The translations under genes and the position numbers were made by a program. Positions 175 through 16,637 of a stretch of DNA of 19,945 nucleotides are shown here, piece after piece (the first letter of the stretch is position 1; every line of letters starts with the position of its first letter). Below the pieces are notes generated by a model that searched no databases, had not been told where the DNA came from, and was given only the letters and a program-made list of their open reading frames with translations. The stretch lies in IMG/VR virus record IMGVR_UViG_2627853844_000002; one strand, 5' to 3'. This DNA is from a virus (Duplodnaviria; Heunggongvirae; Uroviricota; Caudoviricetes).

Positions 175-227
175 GGGCGGCAGAGCAGTCACGGAGTAAA
201 ACTGATACCGCCAAACGTCACCAGAAA
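175..227 (-). ncRNA. dicF: DicF small RNA (53 nt; antisense regulator of ftsZ and other targets)
   Basis: Reverse complement of 175-227 reads UUUCUGGUGACGUUUGGCGGUAUCAGUUUUACUCCGUGACUGCUCUGCCGCCC, matching the DicF sequence as I recall it, followed by a U-run terminator tail (plus-strand A-run 171-174). Confidence 0.85.
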
Positions 228-3252: not shown

Positions 3253-3406
3253 TAATCGTATTTCTTGTGTCATTAATTGTTTGATGTTCAGATTGTTTTC
3301 CTCGCGGGCTGGCGCGCCTCAGAAAGTAAAGCTTGTTGACAGGGGTAAACGTTCGGCAATAATTTTCTGCCGCATGCGGGTGTTGCATAAAACGTGTTAC
3401 GTTCCT

Positions 3407-3712
3407 TTATCGACAGGTCAGGTCACCGCTCACCCGCCGACGAGAAAGCAACACTGACATGCTAAAGCAAAAAATAGATGAATAAGTTGAGTTGTGCATA
3501 TGTAGCCTGACCGTCACAAAGTATATGGTGTCTGTACCAGTAAGATGATGGCCGGACTCTTTAAAAACGAGCTGACCTGCACAATACAGGATGGACTTAG
3601 CAATGGCTGCTCCTGGCACAAAGCGGACAGTGATCACCGTTCTTACGACTACTTTCTGACTTCCTTCGTGACTTGCCCTAAGCATGTTGTAGTGCGATAC
3701 TTGTAATGACAT
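3407..3712 (-). CDS. ydfV: Hypothetical ORF (ydfV-like, 101 aa); doubtful coding status, overlaps the relB promoter/operator
   Basis: ORF track only; length matches the annotated K-12 ydfV as I recall; no recognisable domain. Confidence 0.3.
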   Translation of the reverse strand: MSLQVSHYNMLRASHEGSQKVVVRTVITVRFVPGAAIAKSILYCAGQLVFKESGHHLTGTDTIYFVTVRLHMHNSTYSSIFCFSMSVLLSRRRVSGDLTCR

Positions 3713-3736: not shown

Positions 3737-3976
3737 ATGGGTAGCATTAACCTGCGTATTGACGATGAACTTAAAGCGCGTTCTTACGCCGCGCTTGAAA
3801 AAATGGGTGTAACTCCTTCTGAAGCGCTTCGTCTCATGCTCGAGTATATCGCTGACAATGAACGCTTGCCGTTCAAACAGACACTCCTGAGTGATGAAGA
3901 TGCTGAACTTGTGGAGATAGTGAAAGAACGGCTTCGTAATCCTAAGCCAGTACGTGTGACGCTGGATGAACTCTGA
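3737..3976 (+). CDS. relB: RelB antitoxin (79 aa)
   Basis: ORF translation MGSINLRIDDELKARSYAALEKMGVTPSEALRLMLEYIADNERLPFKQTLL...; ATGA overlap with relE. Confidence 0.95.
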   Translation: MGSINLRIDDELKARSYAALEKMGVTPSEALRLMLEYIADNERLPFKQTLLSDEDAELVEIVKERLRNPKPVRVTLDEL

Positions 3977-4263
3977 TGGCGTATTTTCTGGATTTTGACG
4001 AGCGGGCACTAAAGGAATGGCGAAAGCTGGGCTCGACGGTACGTGAACAGTTGAAAAAGAAGCTGGTTGAAGTACTTGAGTCACCCCGGATTGAAGCAAA
4101 CAAGCTCCGTGGTATGCCTGATTGTTACAAGATTAAGCTCCGGTCTTCAGGCTATCGCCTTGTATACCAGGTTATAGACGAGAAAGTTGTCGTTTTCGTG
4201 ATTTCTGTTGGGAAAAGAGAACGCTCGGAAGTATATAGCGAGGCGGTCAAACGCATTCTCTGA
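3976..4263 (+). CDS. relE: RelE mRNA-interferase toxin (95 aa)
   Basis: ORF translation MAYFLDFDERALKEWRKLGSTVREQLKKKLVEVLESPRIEANKLRGMPDCYKIKLRSSGYRLVYQV... Confidence 0.95.
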   Translation: MAYFLDFDERALKEWRKLGSTVREQLKKKLVEVLESPRIEANKLRGMPDCYKIKLRSSGYRLVYQVIDEKVVVFVISVGKRERSEVYSEAVKRIL

Positions 4264-4334
4264 ACCAAAGCATGACATCTCTGTTTCGCACCGAAGGTGA
4301 CACTTCTGCTTTGCGTTGACAGGAGAAGCAGGCT

Positions 4335-4490
4335 ATGAAGCAGCAAAAGGCGATGTTAATCGCCCTGATCGTCATCTGTTTAACCGTCATAGTGACGGCA
4401 CTGGTAACGAGGAAAGACCTCTGCGAGGTACGAATCCGAACCGGCCAGACGGAGGTCGCTGTCTTCACAGCTTACGAACCTGAGGAGTAA
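4335..4490 (+). CDS. hokD: HokD (RelF) Hok-family membrane toxin (51 aa)
   Basis: Manual translation MKQQKAMLIALIVICLTVIVTALVTRKDLCEVRIRTGQTEVAVFTAYEPEE; third gene of the relBE-hokD operon; under 60 aa so absent from the ORF track. Confidence 0.9.
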   Translation: MKQQKAMLIALIVICLTVIVTALVTRKDLCEVRIRTGQTEVAVFTAYEPEE

Positions 4491-4558
4491 GAGACCCGGC
4501 GGGGGAGAAATCCCTCGCCACCTCTGATGTGGCAGGCATCCTCAACGCACCCGCACTT

Positions 4559-4590
4559 AACCCGCTTCGGCGGGTTTTTGTTTTTATTTT
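4559..4590 (+). terminator. Rho-independent terminator of the relB-relE-hokD operon
   Basis: CCCGC-TTCG-GCGGG hairpin (4561-4574) followed by TTTTTGTTTTTATTTT. Confidence 0.8.
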
Positions 4591-5304: not shown

Positions 5305-6354
5305 GTGCGGGTATTACTTAGACCTGTTCTGGTGCCTGAGCTTGGGCTGGTGGTCCTTAAGCCGGGCCGTGAATCCATACAGATATTTCATAATCCTCGA
5401 GTGCTGGTGGAACCGGAACCAAAAAGCATGCGTAATCTGCCATCCGGAGTCGTTCCTGCCGTTCGCCAGCCGCTGGCGGAAGACAAAACATTGCTGCCGT
5501 TTTTTAGTAACGAACGGGTGATTCGTGCTGCTGGCGGCGTTGGCGCATTGTCCGACTGGCTATTACGTCATGTTACATCCTGCCAGTGGCCTAATGGCGA
5601 TTACCATCACACTGAAACAGTCATTCACCGTTATGGTACCGGCGCAATGGTGTTGTGCTGGCACTGCGACAACCAACTGCGTGACCAGACATCGGAATCA
5701 CTGGAGCTGCTTGCTCAACAAAATCTGACAGCATGGGTGATTGACGTCATCCGTCACGCAATAAGCGGTACGCAGGAGCGGGAATTATCTTTGGCTGAAT
5801 TATCCTGGTGGGCGGTCTGCAATCAGGTGGTGGATGCACTACCTGAGGCTGTATCGCGTCGTTCGCTGGGATTACCAGCGGAAAAAATCTGCTCGGTGTA
5901 CCGCGAAAGCGACATCGTACCGGGAGAGCAGACCGCCACCAGCATATTGAAACAACGCACAAAAAATCTTGCACCGTTGCCTTACGCCCACCAGCAACAA
6001 AAATCACCACAGGAAAAGACGGTGGTAAGCATCACCGTTGATCCAGAGTCTCCGGAATCTTTCATGAAGCTGCCTAAACGTCGCCGCTGGGTTAAGGAGA
6101 AATACACACGTTGGGTTAAGACACAGCCGTGTGCTTGCTGCGGTATGCCAGCCGACGATCCGCATCATCTGATTGGTCACGGGCAGGGCGGAATGGGAAC
6201 AAAAGCACATGATCTCTTTGTGTTGCCTTTGTGCAGAAAGCATCACAACGAGCTGCATACGGATACAGTGGCATTTGAAGATAAGTATGGCTCCCAACTG
6301 GAGCTGATATTTCGTTTTATCGATCGCGCGCTGGCAATTGGCGTACTGGCGTAA
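5305..6354 (+). CDS. ydfU: YdfU, DUF968-family prophage protein with a C-terminal HNH-like zinc-finger nuclease motif (349 aa from GTG)
   Basis: GGAGG SD then GTG at 5305; C-terminus contains CACCGMPADDPHH...GTKAHDLFVLPLCRKHHNELH (CxxC ... HH ... CxxHH). The ORF track's longer 5266 start is less likely. Confidence 0.7.
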   Translation: MRVLLRPVLVPELGLVVLKPGRESIQIFHNPRVLVEPEPKSMRNLPSGVVPAVRQPLAEDKTLLPFFSNERVIRAAGGVGALSDWLLRHVTSCQWPNGDYHHTETVIHRYGTGAMVLCWHCDNQLRDQTSESLELLAQQNLTAWVIDVIRHAISGTQERELSLAELSWWAVCNQVVDALPEAVSRRSLGLPAEKICSVYRESDIVPGEQTATSILKQRTKNLAPLPYAHQQQKSPQEKTVVSITVDPESPESFMKLPKRRRWVKEKYTRWVKTQPCACCGMPADDPHHLIGHGQGGMGTKAHDLFVLPLCRKHHNELHTDTVAFEDKYGSQLELIFRFIDRALAIGVLA

Positions 6355-6367
6355 GTGGAGAACGAGC

Positions 6368-7120
6368 ATGAACCTTGAAGCCTTACCAAAATATTACTCC
6401 CCAAAATCTCCAAAATTGAGCGATGACGCTCCAGCGACAGGCACCGGTTGTTTAACAATTACGGATGTAATGGCAGCGCAGGGGATGGTGCAGTCGAAAG
6501 CACCACTTGGGTTGGCCTTATTTCTGGCAAAAGTTGGTGTTCAGGACCCTCAGTTTGCGATTGAAGGCCTGCTAAATTACGCGATGGCACTGGATAACCC
6601 GACATTGAACAAATTGAGTGAAGAAATCCGGTTACAGATTATTCCTTACCTCGTGAGTTTTGCCTTTGCTGATTACTCCAGGTCTGCGGCAAGTAAGGCT
6701 CGCTGTGAGCATTGTTCAGGTACGGGATTTTATAATGTATTGCGCGAAGTGGTGAAACACTACAGACGCGGGGAATCTGTAATCAAGGAAGAATGGGTGA
6801 AGGAACTATGTCAGCATTGCCATGGTAAGGGCGAAGCCAGCACAGCGTGCAGAGGGTGTAAGGGTAAAGGGATTGTTCTGGATGAAAAAAGAACCCGGTT
6901 TCATGGCGTACCGGTATATAAGATTTGTGGGCGTTGTAATGGAAACCGGTTTAGTCGTTTACCGACCACGCTGGCACGACGTCATGTCCAGAAGCTGGTA
7001 CCAGACCTGACCGATTATCAGTGGTATAAGGGGTATGCGGACGTCATTGGTAAACTGGTAACAAAGTGCTGGCAGGAAGAAGCATACGCGGAAGCGCAAT
7101 TGAGGAAGGTGACGAGATAA
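6368..7120 (+). CDS. quuQ: Q-family late-gene antiterminator (250 aa)
   Basis: ORF translation from the internal Met MNLEALPKYY...; multiple CxxC zinc-finger pairs (CEHCSGTG, CQHCHGKG, CRGCKGKG, CGRCNG); sits immediately upstream of a PR'-like promoter and terminator. Confidence 0.8.
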   Translation: MNLEALPKYYSPKSPKLSDDAPATGTGCLTITDVMAAQGMVQSKAPLGLALFLAKVGVQDPQFAIEGLLNYAMALDNPTLNKLSEEIRLQIIPYLVSFAFADYSRSAASKARCEHCSGTGFYNVLREVVKHYRRGESVIKEEWVKELCQHCHGKGEASTACRGCKGKGIVLDEKRTRFHGVPVYKICGRCNGNRFSRLPTTLARRHVQKLVPDLTDYQWYKGYADVIGKLVTKCWQEEAYAEAQLRKVTR

Positions 7121-7151
7121 ATGATTTTTGCTGAAGATGGCGACATGATGT

Positions 7152-7180
7152 TTGCATTTTTCAAAAAATATGGATAAAAT
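7152..7180 (+). promoter_or_regulatory. PR'-like late promoter (TTGCAT-N17-TAAAAT) downstream of quuQ
   Basis: Hexamers at 7152-7157 and 7175-7180 read from the sequence; position analogous to lambda PR'. Confidence 0.5.
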
Positions 7181-7225
7181 TTTTTCAACGATGGGCTTTG
7201 TATACCCGACGTTAAGAAAAAGTAG

Positions 7226-7256
7226 AAAACCCGCTGATGAGCGGGTTTTGTGCTTT
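7226..7256 (+). terminator. tR'-like intrinsic terminator (target of Q antitermination)
   Basis: ACCCGCT-GATG-AGCGGGT hairpin (7229-7246) followed by TTTTGTGCTTT, about 50 nt downstream of the PR'-like -10. Confidence 0.7.
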
Positions 7257-7541
7257 AAATGGGGCAATGGTAATGTTGAATCTCATCCCGGGACTCATGT
7301 CTGTTAACTTATTATTTAGCTGGTGACTTGGTTATTTGCCTGATGTTTAAAATGTTTTCTTCCAGTACAATGTCCCTAAACACAATGAGTCTGCTTATTA
7401 TATTATTAGCAGAGCTATTACGGCCAAAGTACAGCATAAGCTTTTAAAGCCAATCAACCAGTCATCAAGACAGACGGGGTTATTCATAAAAACTCTCCAT
7501 GTGTGATCCGATGGGGCCTGAAATTAAAGCTTTAATATAGC

Positions 7542-7754
7542 TCATGAAAGGTAAACATTGGCAGCTGAAGGGCCACGCAGACCATTTATCCGGCAAAATT
7601 CCACGCGTAATCCGGTGGTAATTTCTTCTGCATCGCGGAGATTGAGCGCTGAAACATGAAGCTGGACATCGATACGACCATCGGATGGGGTGATAAGACC
7701 CTTGCCGCTTTTGCCGTCAAAGGTTTTGACAATTCCTGTCATTTTACGGGACAA
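7542..7754 (-). CDS. cspF: Cold-shock protein family member CspF (70 aa)
   Basis: ORF translation [70 protein letters not shown]. Confidence 0.9.
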
Positions 7755-8054
7755 AAAAATTCCTTAATACTGATAACTTGGCGCACTATACACACGTTCC
7801 TGAAGAAAGCTATAGTTTTTTGATGGGGTTGAAGATGGCTGGATGTCTAAAATAAACATTGCTTCATATGTTCAACTATGCGTTAATGATTGCGTCGGTT
7901 TGAAGAACAGACGATATACGAAGTAGTTTACTAAAGCAGTTCTCATTTCAGGTGTTATTCACTTATTCCTTCTTTGAGTCTCTCCAATTAAGTACGAAGT
8001 CGTTTCTGTTATGCAAACCATTTATGCCGAAAGGCTCAAGTTAAGGAATGTAGA

Positions 8055-8270
8055 ATGTCAAATAAAATGACTGGTTTAGTAAAATGGTTTAACGCTGATA
8101 AAGGTTTCGGCTTTATTTCTCCTGTTGATGGTAGTAAAGATGTGTTTGTGCATTTTTCTGCGATTCAGAATGATAATTATCGAACCTTATTTGAAGGTCA
8201 AAAGGTTACCTTCTCTATAGAGAGTGGTGCTAAAGGTCCTGCAGCAGCAAATGTCATCATTACTGATTAA
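8055..8270 (+). CDS. cspB: Cold-shock protein CspB (71 aa)
   Basis: ORF translation [71 protein letters not shown]. Confidence 0.95.
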
Positions 8271-8381
8271 AATTCATCGCTCGTCTGTATACGATAACGA
8301 AGAAGGCTGATGCCTGAGTAGAGATACGGACAGAGTAGTGAATATTGGATCTCTTTAATAAAAAGTAAGGAGGTCCAATAC

Positions 8382-8417
8382 ATGAAACAATGGCTAGCAT
8401 ATTTGGCAAAATCTTAA
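8382..8417 (+). CDS. Candidate 11-codon mini-ORF (MKQWLAYLAKS) with a near-consensus Shine-Dalgarno
   Basis: TAAGGAGGT at 8366-8374, 8-nt spacer, ATG at 8382, stop TAA at 8415-8417; no other evidence of translation. Confidence 0.3.
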   Translation: MKQWLAYLAKS

Positions 8418-8551
8418 TCAGGAAAAGTATGCTAACCATTGTGGTGAAGTGCAGGTTTGCTGCATGAATAGTTTTACAGCAGAAGCTAACTGCTGGCATG
8501 GCAAAACAAAGTGCGTAAGTGGATGACTCCCACAAAAAGCACCACAATCTC

Positions 8552-8576
8552 AAACCCGCTCAGGCGGGTTTTTTAT
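8552..8576 (+). terminator. Rho-independent (possibly bidirectional) terminator between the cspB region and a convergent small ORF
   Basis: CCCGC-TCAG-GCGGG hairpin (8555-8568) followed by TTTTTT ATTAT. Confidence 0.7.
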
Positions 8577-8633
8577 TATCTGCTTTAAATATATTATTAA
8601 AATATAGAAAATACTTGTTACTAATAAAATCAA

Positions 8634-8804
8634 TCAGGCTACAGCTTTAAGATTTGTCTGGAATACTTTGTTGCAATGAGGGCAGATCAAAAGGGCACCT
8701 TTTTGTACTCTTGAAAAACTGTGTTCTGACTCTTGGGTGCAGTTTGGGCAGGAACATTTAACGAGATAATTACGGCGTGATTTTGAGTTTTTACGTTCTG
8801 ACAT
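8634..8804 (-). CDS. Small zinc-ribbon protein (56 aa; C-x-C-x2-C ... C-x2-C); possibly the small protein annotated as ynfU in recent K-12 annotations
   Basis: Internal Met of ORF 8634..8855: MSERKNSKSRRNYLVKCSCPNCTQESEHSFSRVQKGALLICPHCNKVFQTNLKAVA; AGGA SD about 8 nt upstream of the ATG. Confidence 0.5.
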   Translation of the reverse strand: MSERKNSKSRRNYLVKCSCPNCTQESEHSFSRVQKGALLICPHCNKVFQTNLKAVA

Positions 8805-9023
8805 AGGCTTTTCCTGTATAAATGGCCGTATACAGTACACTAAATATGAAAACATTTCTCGTATTATTATTTTATATATGACTTTCTTTCAAAATAATTA
8901 CCCACATTTTTAATGTGTATGTTTTTTTAGCGCCGTTGAGAACAACGTGTGCTGTCAAAACTACCCCGTAGACTCCGATCTTTTCAAACATATTGCACCA
9001 TCCGTGTACATCGGGGTGAGGAT

Positions 9024-9239
9024 ATGAAATCAATGGATAAGTTAACAACAGGTGTTGCCTATGGCACATCGGCGGGTAATGCTGGTTTCTGGGCATTGCA
9101 GTTACTCGATAAAGTAACTCCGTCACAGTGGGCTGCAATCGGTGTGCTGGGTAGCCTGGTTTTTGGCCTGCTGACGTATCTGACAAATCTTTATTTCAAG
9201 ATTAAAGAAGACAGGCGTAAGGCTGCGAGAGGAGAGTAA
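9024..9239 (+). CDS. essQ: Pinholin (S21-like class II holin) with dual-start MKSM motif (71 aa)
   Basis: Internal start of ORF 8949..9239: [71 protein letters not shown], closely resembling the phage 21 pinholin as recalled. Confidence 0.85.
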
Positions 9240-9243
9240 TCCA

Positions 9244-9551
9244 ATGACTCAAGACTATGAACTGGTTGTGAAAGGAGTCCGTAATTTTGAGAATAAAGTT
9301 ACGGTAACTGTAGCCTTACAGGACAAAGAACGCTTTGACGGTGAAATTTTTGACCTGGATGTCGCCATGGACCGTGTTGAAGGAGCTGCGCTGGAGTTTT
9401 ATGAGGCAGCAGCCAGAAGGAGCGTCCGGCAAGTCTTCCTGGAAGTAGCAGAAAAATTGTCAGAAAAAGTTGAGTCTTATCTGCAGCATCAGTACTCCTT
9501 TAAGATTGAAAATCCTGCCAATAAGCACGAGCGTCCTCATCATAAATATCT

Positions 9552-10579: not shown

Positions 10580-10941
10580 GGTAATATTAAATCGGAACAT
10601 TTACATCGCGGAATGTAAAATTTAAATAAAAAGGACTCTTCCATGAGCCAAAATTCCTGAAATCTTAAGGGTAAGATAAAAGGTCTTAATCAGAATGACA
10701 CGTTTTATTAATAAATAAAGCTATTCTTTCATTGCTGTGTTTTTCTTTACAAAAGTAATCCTTGCTATGGGTGGTTAATCATGCGTTAATGGTGTTCTGG
10801 TTTGTTACAAATTTATCTGAAGCAGTCATTGTTATAATTTTATTATTTGTACCTCTTGAGATTTCCTTGTTGGTTTTTCTCTCTGATATTTTTTTTCGGA
10901 CCATTCTGCCCAAGGGCTAATTTCTTCAAAAGGTAATAATT

Positions 10942-11154
10942 ATGTCTAACAAAATGACTGGTTTAGTGAAATGGTTTAACCCTGAAAAAGGTTTTGGTTT
11001 CATCACGCCGAAAGATGGCAGCAAAGATGTGTTTGTCCATTTCTCAGCAATTCAGAGCAACGATTTCAAAACATTAACTGAGAATCAGGAAGTTGAATTT
11101 GGTATTGAGAACGGACCTAAAGGTCCTGCCGCTGTTCATGTAGTGGCGCTTTGA
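10942..11154 (+). CDS. cspI: Cold-shock protein CspI (70 aa)
   Basis: ORF translation [70 protein letters not shown]. Confidence 0.95.
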
Positions 11155-11353
11155 GGTAGACAATATTACAAACCATATTCACTTTAGATGCCCGTGTTGT
11201 CATGGTTCCCAGTATAGAACATCATCTTTTGATGTTTCTGACATGAATCCTTTCGGGGCAAAATGTATCTTTTGTAAATCAATGATGATTACATTTGATA
11301 ATATTTCACAATACTTAAATGCCAGCCGTCTGTCGTTGGATTTAAAAAAGTGA
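11144..11353 (+). pseudogene. Zinc-ribbon-like reading frame (paralog of the 8634..8804 ORF) lacking any canonical in-frame start before its first Cys cluster; only the C-terminal 36 codons (ATG 11243) are conventionally translatable
   Basis: Frame +1 relative to cspI reads ...FRCPCCHGSQYRTSSFDVSDMNPFGAKCIFCKSMMITFDNISQYLNASRLSLDLKK*; an ATG at 11188 is out of frame by one nucleotide (ATG CCC GTG ... stops after 9 codons). Confidence 0.35.
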
Positions 11354-11358
11354 AAATG

Positions 11359-11386
11359 AAGGCTCCTTCGGGAGCTTTTTTGCTTG
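11359..11386 (+). terminator. Rho-independent terminator downstream of cspI and the zinc-ribbon frame
   Basis: GCTCC-TTCG-GGAGC hairpin (11362-11375) followed by TTTTTTG. Confidence 0.7.
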
Positions 11387-11499
11387 GTGTCTATTCGATG
11401 GATACTCACATACTACGGTAACATCATGAAAAAAATCATAGTTTTTTTAACTCTGAACCAGCAGTGGTAGTGCCAGCGATGACTGGAGTTAACACCATC

Positions 11500-11655: not shown

Positions 11656-11826
11656 TTTGATGCTATTGCATTGATAATTCAGGAAAATTCTCTTTGTCTG
11701 TTTGTGTAAAATTTAGACTATCGTATGTTGATTATTGCGATGTTTCATCTTATCTTTTACACGTTTGCACCATATAATCGACTTACTGTGTAACTGGAAA
11801 GTCATAACAGACTAAAAGAGGAAATG

Positions 11827-12000
11827 ATGAATATTGAAAACTTAAAAACAAAAGCAGAAGCAGATATTTCTGAATATATAACAAAAAAAATTATTGAACT
11901 TAAGAAAAAGACCGGGAAAGAAGTTACCAGTATTCAGTTTACCGCACGGGAAAAAATGACGGGTCTTGAAAGCTATGATGTCAAGATTAATTTAATCTGA
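11827..12000 (+). CDS. gnsB: GnsB (57 aa), Gns-family small protein
   Basis: Manual translation MNIENLKTKAEADISEYITKKIIELKKKTGKEVTSIQFTAREKMTGLESYDVKINLI; a weak hairpin with a U-run follows at about 12030-12055. Confidence 0.85.
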   Translation: MNIENLKTKAEADISEYITKKIIELKKKTGKEVTSIQFTAREKMTGLESYDVKINLI

Positions 12001-12151
12001 TGTATTCAATAATAAAATTTATCCATAAACCTCGTTTTTACGGGGTTTTGTTATATTTGAATGGTTCCGAATATCTAAATCACAATTGTTGATGGTTTTT
12101 ATTAAACCAATGCAGTCCGGCTCAGGAGTGAGAGAAGCCGGACGTTATGGT

Positions 12152-12598: not shown

Positions 12599-12644
12599 CT
12601 GATGAATCCCCTAATGATTTTGGTAAAAATCATTAAGTTAAGGT

Positions 12645-12713
12645 GGATACACATCTTGTCATATGATCAAATGGTTTCGCGAAAAATCAATAATCAGACA
12701 ACAAGATGTGCGA
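12645..12713 (-). ncRNA. IS10 antisense RNA-OUT (from pOUT; represses transposase translation); coordinates approximate
   Basis: Placed from established IS10 organisation (RNA-OUT covering roughly IS10 nt 47-115, overlapping the transposase start at nt 108); not derived independently from the sequence. Confidence 0.5.
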
Positions 12714-13914
12714 ACTCGATATTTTACACGACTCTCTTTACCAATTCTGCCCCGAATTACACTTAAAACGACTCAACAGCTTAACGTTGGCTTGCCACGC
12801 ATTACTTGACTGTAAAACTCTCACTCTTACCGAACTTGGCCGTAACCTGCCAACCAAAGCGAGAACAAAACATAACATCAAACGAATCGACCGATTGTTA
12901 GGTAATCGTCACCTCCACAAAGAGCGACTCGCTGTATACCGTTGGCATGCTAGCTTTATCTGTTCGGGCAATACGATGCCCATTGTACTTGTTGACTGGT
13001 CTGATATTCGTGAGCAAAAACGACTTATGGTATTGCGAGCTTCAGTCGCACTACACGGTCGTTCTGTTACTCTTTATGAGAAAGCGTTCCCGCTTTCAGA
13101 GCAATGTTCAAAGAAAGCTCATGACCAATTTCTAGCCGACCTTGCGAGCATTCTACCGAGTAACACCACACCGCTCATTGTCAGTGATGCTGGCTTTAAA
13201 GTGCCATGGTATAAATCCGTTGAGAAGCTGGGTTGGTACTGGTTAAGTCGAGTAAGAGGAAAAGTACAATATGCAGACCTAGGAGCGGAAAACTGGAAAC
13301 CTATCAGCAACTTACATGATATGTCATCTAGTCACTCAAAGACTTTAGGCTATAAGAGGCTGACTAAAAGCAATCCAATCTCATGCCAAATTCTATTGTA
13401 TAAATCTCGCTCTAAAGGCCGAAAAAATCAGCGCTCGACACGGACTCATTGTCACCACCCGTCACCTAAAATCTACTCAGCGTCGGCAAAGGAGCCATGG
13501 GTTCTAGCAACTAACTTACCTGTTGAAATTCGAACACCCAAACAACTTGTTAATATCTATTCGAAGCGAATGCAGATTGAAGAAACCTTCCGAGACTTGA
13601 AAAGTCCTGCCTACGGACTAGGCCTACGCCATAGCCGAACGAGCAGCTCAGAGCGTTTTGATATCATGCTGCTAATCGCCCTGATGCTTCAACTAACATG
13701 TTGGCTTGCGGGCGTTCATGCTCAGAAACAAGGTTGGGACAAGCACTTCCAGGCTAACACAGTCAGAAATCGAAACGTACTCTCAACAGTTCGCTTAGGC
13801 ATGGAAGTTTTGCGGCATTCTGGCTACACAATAACAAGGGAAGACTTACTCGTGGCTGCAACCCTACTAGCTCAAAATTTATTCACACATGGTTACGCTT
13901 TGGGGAAATTATGA
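12706..13914 (+). CDS. IS10 transposase (402 aa)
   Basis: ORF translation MCELDILHDSLYQFCPELHLKRLNSLTLACHALLDCKTLTLTELGRNLPTKARTKHNIKRIDRLL... recognised as IS10 transposase; start at IS10 nt 108. Confidence 0.95.
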   Translation: MCELDILHDSLYQFCPELHLKRLNSLTLACHALLDCKTLTLTELGRNLPTKARTKHNIKRIDRLLGNRHLHKERLAVYRWHASFICSGNTMPIVLVDWSDIREQKRLMVLRASVALHGRSVTLYEKAFPLSEQCSKKAHDQFLADLASILPSNTTPLIVSDAGFKVPWYKSVEKLGWYWLSRVRGKVQYADLGAENWKPISNLHDMSSSHSKTLGYKRLTKSNPISCQILLYKSRSKGRKNQRSTRTHCHHPSPKIYSASAKEPWVLATNLPVEIRTPKQLVNIYSKRMQIEETFRDLKSPAYGLGLRHSRTSSSERFDIMLLIALMLQLTCWLAGVHAQKQGWDKHFQANTVRNRNVLSTVRLGMEVLRHSGYTITREDLLVAATLLAQNLFTHGYALGKL

Positions 13915-13927
13915 GGGGATCTCTCAG

Positions 13928-13936
13928 GGCGTAGTC
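13928..13936. repeat. IS10 target-site duplication, right copy (GGCGTAGTC)
   Basis: Same 9-mer as 12590-12598, directly after the IS10 inside end. Confidence 0.9.
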
Positions 13937-13957
13937 TGCACGATTATCTAAATTGCT

Positions 13958-14191
13958 TCAATCTGGTCTGACCTGTTTTCTGAGCAATTCAGTAATGTCA
14001 CTCTTTTCTTTGTTTGCTTCAGAAGAAACTCTTTTTTCTGAGCACAGTCTCCGGCGGCAGGCTTCAATGACCCAGGCTGAGAAATTCCCGGACCCTTTTT
14101 GCTCAAGAGCGATGTTAATTTGTTCAATCATTTGGTTAGGAAAGCGGATGTTGCGGGTTGTTGTTCTGCGGGTTCTGTTCTTCGTTGACAT
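13958..14191 (-). CDS. ynfO: YnfO, uncharacterised prophage protein (77 aa)
   Basis: ORF translation MSTKNRTRRTTTRNIRFPNQMIEQINIALEQKGSGNFSAWVIEACRRRLCSEKRVSSEANKEKSDITELLRKQVRPD; stop lies 22 bp from the IS10 target duplication. Confidence 0.7.
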   Translation of the reverse strand: MSTKNRTRRTTTRNIRFPNQMIEQINIALEQKGSGNFSAWVIEACRRRLCSEKRVSSEANKEKSDITELLRKQVRPD

Positions 14192-16062: not shown

Positions 16063-16637
16063 TGGCATTCAGAATGAGTGAACAACCACGGACCATAAAA
16101 ATTTATAATCTGCTGGCCGGAACTAATGAATTTATTGGTGAAGGTGATGCATATATTCCGCCTCATACAGGTCTGCCAGCAAACAGTACCGATATTGCAC
16201 CGCCAGATATTCCGGCTGGCTTCGTGGCTGTTTTCAACAGTGATGAGTCATCGTGGCATCTCGTTGAAGATCATCGGGGTAAAACGGTTTATGACGTGGC
16301 TTCCGGCGACGCGTTATTTATTTCTGAACTCGGTCCGTTACCGGAAAATGTTACCTGGTTATCGCCGGAAGGGGAGTTTCAGAAGTGGAACGGCACAGCC
16401 TGGGTGAAGGATACGGAAGCAGAAAAACTGTTCCGGATCCGGGAGGCGGAAGAAACAAAAAACAACCTGATGCAGGTAGCCAGTGAGCATATTGCGCCGC
16501 TTCAGGATGCTGCAGATCTGGAAATTGCAACGGAGGAAGAAATCTCGTTGCTGGAAGCATGGAAAAAGTATCGGGTATTGCTGAACCGTGTTGATACGTC
16601 AACTGCACAGGATATTGAATGGCCAGCACTGCCGTAG
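16062..16637 (+). CDS. tfaQ: Tail-fibre assembly protein (191 aa)
   Basis: ORF translation [78 protein letters not shown]...; start overlaps the stf stop. Confidence 0.85.

Follow-up and report, generated by a model that had tools for sequence, protein, structure and literature searches.

Here, we focus on the junction between the late antiterminator gene and the lysis genes of the prophage Qin, as it stands in a stretch of viral DNA of 19,945 nucleotides (IMG/VR record IMGVR_UViG_2627853844_000002). The whole of this stretch is called the window below, and positions refer to it unless another source is named. A preliminary description, made from the letters alone, had singled out positions 7121-8270, where quuQ is followed by a late promoter, a terminator and the cold-shock genes cspF and cspB. 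Over the 3 kb from 6300 to 9300 the window is 100% identical to E. coli K-12 and annotated there; the region is the defective lambdoid prophage Qin of that strain (RefSeq). The annotated gene order begins with dicB, dicA/dicC, relBE, hokD, rem, ydfU, ydfT (quuQ), ynfS, cspF, cspB and ynfU, and continues with essQ (essD in RefSeq), ydfR, rrrQ, rzpQ, cspI, ynfQ, ynfR, ynfN, gnsB, nohA, tfaQ and pinQ. Every feature named in the preliminary description was found where it had been placed, and the features are collected in Table 1.

In all likelihood the interval represents the start of the Qin late operon together with a cassette of cargo genes, of the kind known as morons. A lambda-type late promoter and terminator are followed by self-contained cold-shock genes, at the position where related phages hold Shiga toxin. 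The layout is an ordinary instance of a well-known phage design, an arrangement of known kind in a fully annotated genome. Since the gene order stands in every K-12 annotation and the concept belongs to the textbooks, the finding is already known in kind. Unannotated until now were only the exact coordinates of the promoter (pR'), the pause and the terminator (tR'), and their tie to a 3' end that published Term-seq data list as an 'orphan'.

Table 1. Features of the Qin late region, with positions in the window.
Feature	Position	Strand	Description and basis
quuQ (ydfT)	6368-7120	+	Intact late antiterminator of the Q-lambda family, 250 amino acids
pR'-like late promoter	7152-7180	+	-35 TTGCAT at 7152-7157, 17-bp spacer, -10 TAAAAT at 7175-7180
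Pause element AACGATGGG	7187-7195	+	Predicted; -10-like, sigma70-dependent; same 9-mer and distance as at lambda pR'
pR'-tR' short transcript	7187-7253	+	Predicted, 67 nt; 3' end from Term-seq, putative 5' end
tR' intrinsic terminator	7226-7254 (hairpin 7226-7249)	+	Stem AAAACCCGCT/AGCGGGTTTT, loop GATG, tail TTTTGTGC
ynfS	7398-7487	-	Small protein of 29 amino acids; RefSeq, Pfam PF23697 YnfS
cspF	7542-7754	-	Divergent cold-shock-domain protein; Pfam CSD (PF00313) 5.6e-22
cspB 5' untranslated region (UTR)	7894-8054	+	cspA-type thermoregulator
cspB	8055-8270	+	CspA-family cold-shock protein; Pfam CSD (PF00313) 9.8e-32; RefSeq
cspB mRNA stem-loop and dominant 3' end	8347-8385	+	Term-seq; stem GGATCTC/GAGGTCC read from the sequence
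Second intrinsic terminator	8552-8580	+	AAACCCGC-TCAG-GCGGGTTT then TTTATTAT; scan and fold
ynfU	8634-8804	-	Zinc-ribbon protein of 56 amino acids, last cargo gene; RefSeq, Pfam PF23499 YnfU
essQ	9024-9239	+	P21-type holin, first lysis-cassette gene; Pfam PF04971 at 4.4e-34
cspI with cspA-type 5' UTR	10796-11154	+	Second csp module, downstream of rzpQ; RF01766 112.8 bits

Promoter and terminator downstream of quuQ

QuuQ matches Pfam PF03589 (E = 3.6e-54; 181.3 bits, cut-off 26.7), the same model that lambda Q matches. It also gives a full-length match to the lambda Q structures 7UBM/7UBN (E = 4.6e-36), with residues 1-120 and 160-250 of QuuQ aligning with residues 1-125 and 117-207 of lambda Q (PDB 7UBM); the Cys-rich zinc-binding region is part of this collinearity. 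The two proteins are 33% identical, and relative to lambda Q the Qin protein holds an extra, zinc-finger-like insert of about 45 amino acids of the CxxCxGxG type (a DnaJ_CXXCXGXG match). The Q proteins of phages Tritos, SfV, mEp460, phiSTEC1575-Stx2k and HannyBb are equal to QuuQ in length and share 93-98% protein identity with it, and for this reason QuuQ looks intact. Literature searches on the function of quuQ (ydfT) gave nothing.

The preliminary description had proposed a PR'-like promoter directly after quuQ, and the proposal is borne out by the lambda geometry of the site, by a pause element identical to that of lambda and by conservation. The -35 element starts 32 bp past the Q stop codon, and a consensus promoter scan matches the same place as TTTGCA-18-TAAAAT (7151-7180). 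Read in order, the lambda pR' consists of TTGACT, 17 bp, TAAATT, TGACTC and AACGATGGG, and the Qin site of TTGCAT, 17 bp, TAAAAT, TTTTTC and AACGATGGG. AACGAT therefore lies 6 bp past the Qin -10, identical to lambda in both sequence and position, and AACGATGGG is found once in the window against 0.15 occurrences expected by chance. It is this geometry, the single AACGATGGG and the cross-group conservation of 96.6% described below that make the pR' site credible. In lambda, AACGAT occupies +1 to +6 and resembles a -10 element, and sigma70 holds the polymerase there in the promoter-proximal pause where Q loads. By analogy with this arrangement, we infer that transcription in Qin would start at A7187, the position put forward in the preliminary description, and that the polymerase would pause at the Qin AACGAT, while the 17-bp spacer is the presumed Q-binding element. 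No 5'-end dataset covering position 7187 was found, and none of the coordinates in the Cappable-seq and SMRT-Cappable-seq supplements corresponds to it.

Beyond the pause element lies what had been described as a strong tR'-like terminator, with RNA 3' ends expected at about 7250. Its GC-rich hairpin was detected by a terminator scan and by folding, it is followed by a T-tract, and it is annotated as a terminator in SfV and Ayreon. Published Term-seq data for K-12 agree with both expectations: a 3' end is listed at MG1655 1642356 (-), which is position 7253 (+) of the window, and its flanking sequence is the tR' hairpin (Adams et al. 2021, PMC7815308, supplementary file 1). Coordinates were converted as window = 1649609 - MG1655 coordinate, and the conversion was checked against the printed 61-mers. 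Three condition lists contain this end, scored 103591, 55368 and 123305, and its class there is 'orphan' (PMC7815308). In uninduced K-12 the predicted tR' is thus the point at which an abundant RNA ends. The segment 7187-7256 folds into two hairpins (-29.7 kcal/mol, z = -6.6). In lysogens, pR' promoters are stated to be constitutively active, with termination a short way downstream, and short pR' RNAs are known for lambda, 21, phi80, 82, P22 and the Shiga toxin (Stx) phages (StxS paper, PMC7547250).

The module was compared among phages. A search of phage genomes with Q and the 200 bp downstream of it as the query gave 35 records, and most of them lose homology where the hairpin ends, at position 881 of the query and 7249 of the window. 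SfV, mEp460, Ayreon and the Stx2c and Stx2k phages have a Q/pR'/tR' block about 90% identical to that of Qin. When Qin-type phages were set against SfV-type phages (eight phages in all), the identity between the groups was 87.6% over the 3' end of the Q coding sequence, 96.6% over the -35 to -10 block (93% of columns invariant), 57% from +10 to +39, 73.6% over the hairpin and 32.8% beyond 7255. The spacer between -35 and -10 is the best-conserved non-coding block, and the eight-phage alignment shows no variation in the promoter, the pause element or the hairpin stem. Such a profile is as expected for a selected promoter and spacer, the latter likely being the Q-binding element, and for a recombination junction after the terminator. 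Among 5426 complete E. coli genomes, 2245 (about 40%) contain pR' and tR' together with the 3' end of Q, at a coverage of at least 80%, and 1406 contain the junction from tR' to ynfS-cspF, mostly at an identity of at least 99%.

Phage HannyBb has two pR'-tR' copies, at positions 1672-1810 and 3346-3500 of the stretch examined. The copy directly 3' of Q is degenerate, and the copy 1.7 kb further on is identical to that of Qin, with a remnant Q 3' end before it and the csp and lysis block joined after it. No tRNAs were found in the 1.7-kb insert.

The cargo slot and its cold-shock genes

Between tR' and the lysis genes lies a variable, AT-rich slot of 1.76 kb (about 7255-9010), whose right edge is the ribosome-binding site of the holin gene. 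Most of the slot has a GC fraction of 0.33-0.39, with 0.44-0.46 at cspF, and the flanking Q and lysis genes have 0.45-0.54. The preliminary description had given the slot as 7121-8270. The genes cspF and cspB are indeed present in it, but it extends to about 9010, because homology to other P21-type lysis modules resumes only there, and ynfS and ynfU had been missed. The product of ynfS is on a published list of detected small proteins.

The content of the slot changes from phage to phage. SfV holds a small open reading frame (ORF) and a DNA methylase gene, mEp460 and Ayreon two small ORFs and a DNA methylase gene, and phiSTEC1575-Stx2k three tRNAs followed by stx2A and stx2B. In the Stx2c phage, a methylase gene and two tRNAs are found with genes for a RIP-family A subunit and a Shiga-toxin B subunit. 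Qin, PhiR42_1 and 2H10 share ynfS-cspF, cspB and ynfU, and Tritos has the same content minus 7290-7549, that is, minus ynfS and the 3' end of cspF. The deposited phage genomes of Tritos, 2H10 and HannyBb carry csp cargo between this pR' and the lysis genes. It had been said that other lambdoid prophages carry Shiga toxin genes at this exact position; for this Q module the statement is literally correct, since a Q/pR'/tR' block about 90% identical to that of Qin precedes the tRNAs and stx2AB in the Stx2k and Stx2c phages.

Within the Qin slot, cspB is an autonomous unit. Rfam RF01766 matches at 7894-8286 with 158.8 bits (gathering score 78) and covers model positions 1-428; as the match begins at model position 1, the cspB transcript would start at about 7894. 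A premature Term-seq 3' end lies in the leader at 7975 and a Rho termination region at 8072, inside the cspB ORF, and Rho-dependent attenuation has been reported for a cspB fusion (PMC7815308). The 3' ends of the mRNA are found at MG1655 1641226/1641224 (-), or window 8383/8385, with scores of 604404 to 2464295 (PMC7815308). They lie 113-115 nt past the cspB stop codon, after a stem-loop without a T-tract, and not at the terminator at 8552-8580; the dominant cspB 3' end is probably a processed or protected end. The hairpin of that second terminator (8552-8571, AAACCCGC...GCGGGTTT) is similar in sequence to tR', and Term-seq gives only a weak 3' end there, coming from the opposite (ynfU) side at 8549 with scores of about 940-1030 (PMC7815308).

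The two cold-shock proteins are not equivalent. CspB has intact aromatic motifs RNP1 (KGFGFI) and RNP2 (VFVHF), whereas CspF is without the RNP1/RNP2 aromatic residues (KGKGLI, VQLHV) and on this basis should not be filed as an RNA chaperone. At cspF, no match to the cspA-type leader (Rfam RF01766) was obtained. The term cold-shock RNA chaperone, which the preliminary description had used, is thus apt for CspB and not for CspF. Its account of orientation stands: cspB is co-directional with late transcription and cspF is antisense to it, as are ynfS and ynfU.

A second, independent set of cold-shock genes follows rzpQ. Here, over 10796-11181 and 10942-11409, the RF01766 thermoregulator and cspI, with the cold-shock-like ynfQ after them, are read in the late direction. 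As cspI-ynfQ stands directly downstream of rzpQ, the lysis cassette is bracketed by csp modules. Phage mEp460_ev081 has the module after Rz and no cspB upstream of the holin. In the unrelated phage PHB10 (57 kb), a diverged version of the divergent pair, cspF-like and cspB-like, was seen at positions 3865-4583 of the stretch examined, between the gene for an SOS-response peptidase, just after int, and umuDC about 1.7 kb further on. Since this pair lies outside the slot between Q and holin, the two-gene csp module evidently moves between cargo slots.

A few features elsewhere in the window can be recorded briefly. A copy of the insertion sequence (IS) element IS10, absent from MG1655, stands beside ydfO at about 12640-13970, with RNA-OUT at 12644-12713 (-) and the transposase at 12706-13914 (+); its junction has a 100% match only in K-12 strain ER2796, by which the source strain is identified. 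Rfam matches to the DicF small RNA (sRNA) at 175-226 (-) and to the IS009 RNA family at 16405-16603 (+) are unconnected with the late region.

Proposed late transcription and its alternatives

The order of these elements suggests how late transcription would proceed. Host RNA polymerase with sigma70 would start from pR' at about A7187 and would pause as sigma70 re-binds the -10-like AACGAT at +1 to +6. Without Q, it would stop at tR' (3' end 7253) and release an RNA of about 67 nt. QuuQ, once made, would recognise the conserved pR' spacer and join the paused polymerase, rendering it resistant to terminators. To reach the holin gene, the modified polymerase would have to cross the 1.76-kb AT-rich slot (7255-9010), passing antisense through ynfS and cspF, sense through cspB and antisense through ynfU, and neither the Rho-dependent attenuation in the cspB leader nor the terminator at 8552-8580 would stop it. 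Beyond the slot it would transcribe essQ-ydfR-rrrQ-rzpQ and then cspI-ynfQ-ynfN-gnsB. In the resting prophage, cspB is expressed alone, from its predicted cold-shock promoter and with its thermosensing 5' UTR. In intact relatives with pR'-dependent lysis genes, Q-modified polymerase must cross the slot, so that cspB (and cspI) would be co-transcribed with the late genes, and antisense transcription would run through cspF, ynfS and ynfU. We infer Q-dependent read-through into cspB, and with it co-regulation on prophage induction, from the gene order and the known behaviour of Q-modified polymerase.

Several points weigh against this account. Promoter-like matches alone are not above chance in this AT-rich region (9 found, 6.4 +/- 2.7 expected from shuffles), and the 3' end at 7253 might belong to the tail of the quuQ mRNA instead of to a pR' transcript. 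The T-tract of tR' in the Qin group, TTTTGTGC, is shorter than that in the SfV group, TTTTTTTGTGCC. In one Term-seq condition only, a further 3' end with a score of 87904 is listed at window 7421 (+), MG1655 1642188 (-). This end lies about 170 nt past tR', at a small hairpin antisense to ynfS, and suggests Q-independent read-through of tR', another start or a processed RNA. Taken together, the shorter T-tract and the 3' end at 7421 indicate that some Q-independent read-through may occur. Qin is defective in K-12, and QuuQ may be neither expressed nor active there. Genomic SELEX (systematic evolution of ligands by exponential enrichment) gives peaks of RpoH and RpoE holoenzyme in the essQ-cspB and cspB-cspF spacers, a hint of Q-independent promoters. 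Finally, cspA-type mRNAs have a thermoregulated 5' UTR, and the level of CspB protein at 37 C may stay low despite read-through.

The hairpin at 7226-7249 may also be explained in another way. It could simply end the quuQ mRNA, or act in both directions and end the converging ynfS-cspF transcript as well, with no working promoter between quuQ and the hairpin and with the 3' end at 7253 left by transcripts begun upstream of quuQ. Term-seq reports 3' ends only, the hairpin has T-runs on both sides (the scan scored the minus strand only), and the promoter-like matches are not enriched over shuffles, all of which would suit this explanation. However, conservation is higher in the promoter block and AACGATGGG than at the end of the Q coding sequence, and the two follow the lambda pR' geometry base for base. 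In HannyBb, moreover, pR'-tR' is found 1.7 kb from Q and directly before the csp and lysis block, and a position apart from Q makes sense only if the element is a promoter. A bidirectional terminator was not adopted, because no opposite-strand Term-seq 3' end is listed at the hairpin. The explanation as a whole is very unlikely. Accepting the promoter, one may still ask what its principal product is. The main product in the lysogen might be the short pR'-tR' RNA itself, acting in trans as an Hfq-dependent regulator like StxS, with the csp genes being incidental; we regard this as unlikely. The abundant 3' end at 7253 in uninduced cells and the stable two-hairpin fold speak for it, as do five consecutive A-R-N triplets (AGA AAA AGU AGA AAA, read from the sequence at 7215-7229 (+)) just before the tR' stem and its U-tailed terminator. 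StxS, which arises from pR'/tR', provides the precedent, and an RNA named 'cspF.ydfT.IGR' with 70 chimeric fragments appears in a derived feature table among the RNAs from RIL-seq (ligation and sequencing of interacting RNAs) with Hfq. Yet a RIL-seq-based classifier gives this RNA an sRNA probability of only 0.0024, and as neither its strand nor its exact position is stated, it could be the ynfS mRNA. Furthermore, conservation within the module is lowest from +10 to +39 (57%), SfV-type copies do not have the A-R-N run, and no target is known.

A different objection accepts the switch and doubts that it is in use. In K-12 and most Qin-carrying E. coli, Q may never be made or may be inactive at this site, and cspB, cspF and the lysis genes may be expressed only from their own promoters (cold-shock, RpoE, RpoH), leaving no Q-linked co-regulation of cspB. 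This is a serious possibility, although one that we tend to doubt. Qin is truncated and rearranged, with pseudogenes, IS elements and opposed genes between dicC and quuQ. For cspB there are a separate start, leader and 3' end, and its Term-seq scores in uninduced cells are very high. The SELEX peaks for RpoH and RpoE point in the same direction. The genes cspI, ynfQ and ynfN have been reported as DNA-damage inducible without a LexA box; we rejected this as evidence for control by Q, because non-prophage csp genes respond alike, and it argues for a general csp response. Against disuse, QuuQ is full length and closely similar to the Q proteins of the five phages named above, the promoter, pause element and terminator are intact, and the junction, with an identity of 99% or more in 1289 genome records, shows no sign of decay. 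The objection concerns activity in K-12 only and is compatible with the proposed switch in intact relatives. Two further readings are conceivable, though we give them little credence. The Qin RNA of about 67 nt would in the first be an unannotated, StxS-like regulator of the Hfq type, abundant in uninduced K-12. In the second, cspB before and cspI after the lysis genes would provide Qin-type phages with a Q-driven, temperature-independent supply of RNA chaperone. If the latter were true, phages in the cold could benefit in late-gene expression or in read-through. Both the StxS-like role and the benefit of Q-driven Csp are a matter of plausibility, and the Hfq RIL-seq evidence for the former is weak.

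Relation to known systems

With the late promoter, pause site and terminator of Qin now placed precisely, the 'orphan' Term-seq 3' end of K-12 finds an explanation. As Shiga toxin in the Stx2c and Stx2k phages is driven by this same Q/pR'/tR' module, K-12 carries a harmless, tractable copy of that switch. Beyond a tidier annotation, the placement matters little. Should Q read-through into cspB or a function of the short RNA prove true, prophage late control would be linked to cold-shock and RNA-chaperone physiology.

By every sequence-level criterion, the Qin element belongs with the lambda Q/pR'/tR' switch and would be expected to work like it. The lambda system of Q, pR' (qut), tR' and 6S RNA shares with Qin a Q protein of the same Pfam family that aligns over its full length, a promoter that follows Q directly, has a spacer of 17 bp and lies with its -10 6 bp from an identical AACGATGGG, a downstream terminator and a short RNA. 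The Q of Qin is only 33% identical to that of lambda and has a zinc-finger insert, and the spacer sequence, the presumed Q-binding element, is unrelated. The terminator of Qin lies at about +40 to +67 and that of lambda at about +194, giving a predicted RNA of about 67 nt in the one and of 194 nt in the other. The cargo before the holin amounts to about 1.8 kb in Qin and about 0.4 kb in lambda. A further parallel is provided by DLP12, another defective lambdoid prophage of K-12, for which a Q-type factor has been reported to control the essD-ybcS-rzpD lysis cassette alongside RpoE. DLP12 is, however, a different prophage, and its evidence is experimental while that for Qin is architectural only.

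The cargo itself can be compared with the morons of lambdoid phages. As in those, its presence or absence varies at a fixed junction, it is AT-rich, and cspB brings a start, leader and 3' end of its own and is expressed from the resting prophage (the cspB promoter is predicted). A divergent csp pair also occurs in another slot, between int and umuDC, in PHB10. The autonomy of cspB, the PHB10 pair and the post-Rz module of mEp460_ev081 are the grounds on which the csp cargo fits the definition of a moron. It departs from the type in that the Qin slot combines four small genes, not all in the same orientation, and is not a single promoter-gene-terminator unit. The K-12 chromosome offers another relative in cspH-cspG-ymcF-ymcE-gnsA, where the divergent pair with its intergenic region is 76% identical to cspF-cspB and the downstream genes match cspI-ynfQ...gnsB; there is no Q, no pR'/tR' and there are no lysis genes at that locus. 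It lies at NC_000913.3 1050963-1052240 (2464-3741 of the stretch examined) and is collinear with window 7546-8169, 10938-11301 and 11809-12001. The 5' UTR of cspG is 73% identical to that of cspB and 53% to that of cspI, and the region downstream of cspG is 69% identical to that of cspI and 46% to that of cspB. Judged from these alignments, the locus seems to be a Qin-like late region that lost its holin-to-Rz segment by recombination between the flanking csp genes.

The closest functional parallel is found in the Stx phages. The Q/pR'/tR' of the Stx2k and Stx2c phages is about 90% identical to that of Qin, the toxin genes occupy the same slot between tR' and holin, and short pR' RNAs are made constitutively in lysogens (PMC7547250). 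In contrast to the toxin genes, the cargo of Qin consists of cold-shock genes with regulation of their own, two of the four genes lying on the opposite strand. StxS itself comes from a 933W/Sakai-type pR' (258 nt, processed to 74 nt) and has no sequence homology to the Qin RNA. Some Stx phages share the module with Qin and carry Shiga toxin in the place of cold-shock genes.

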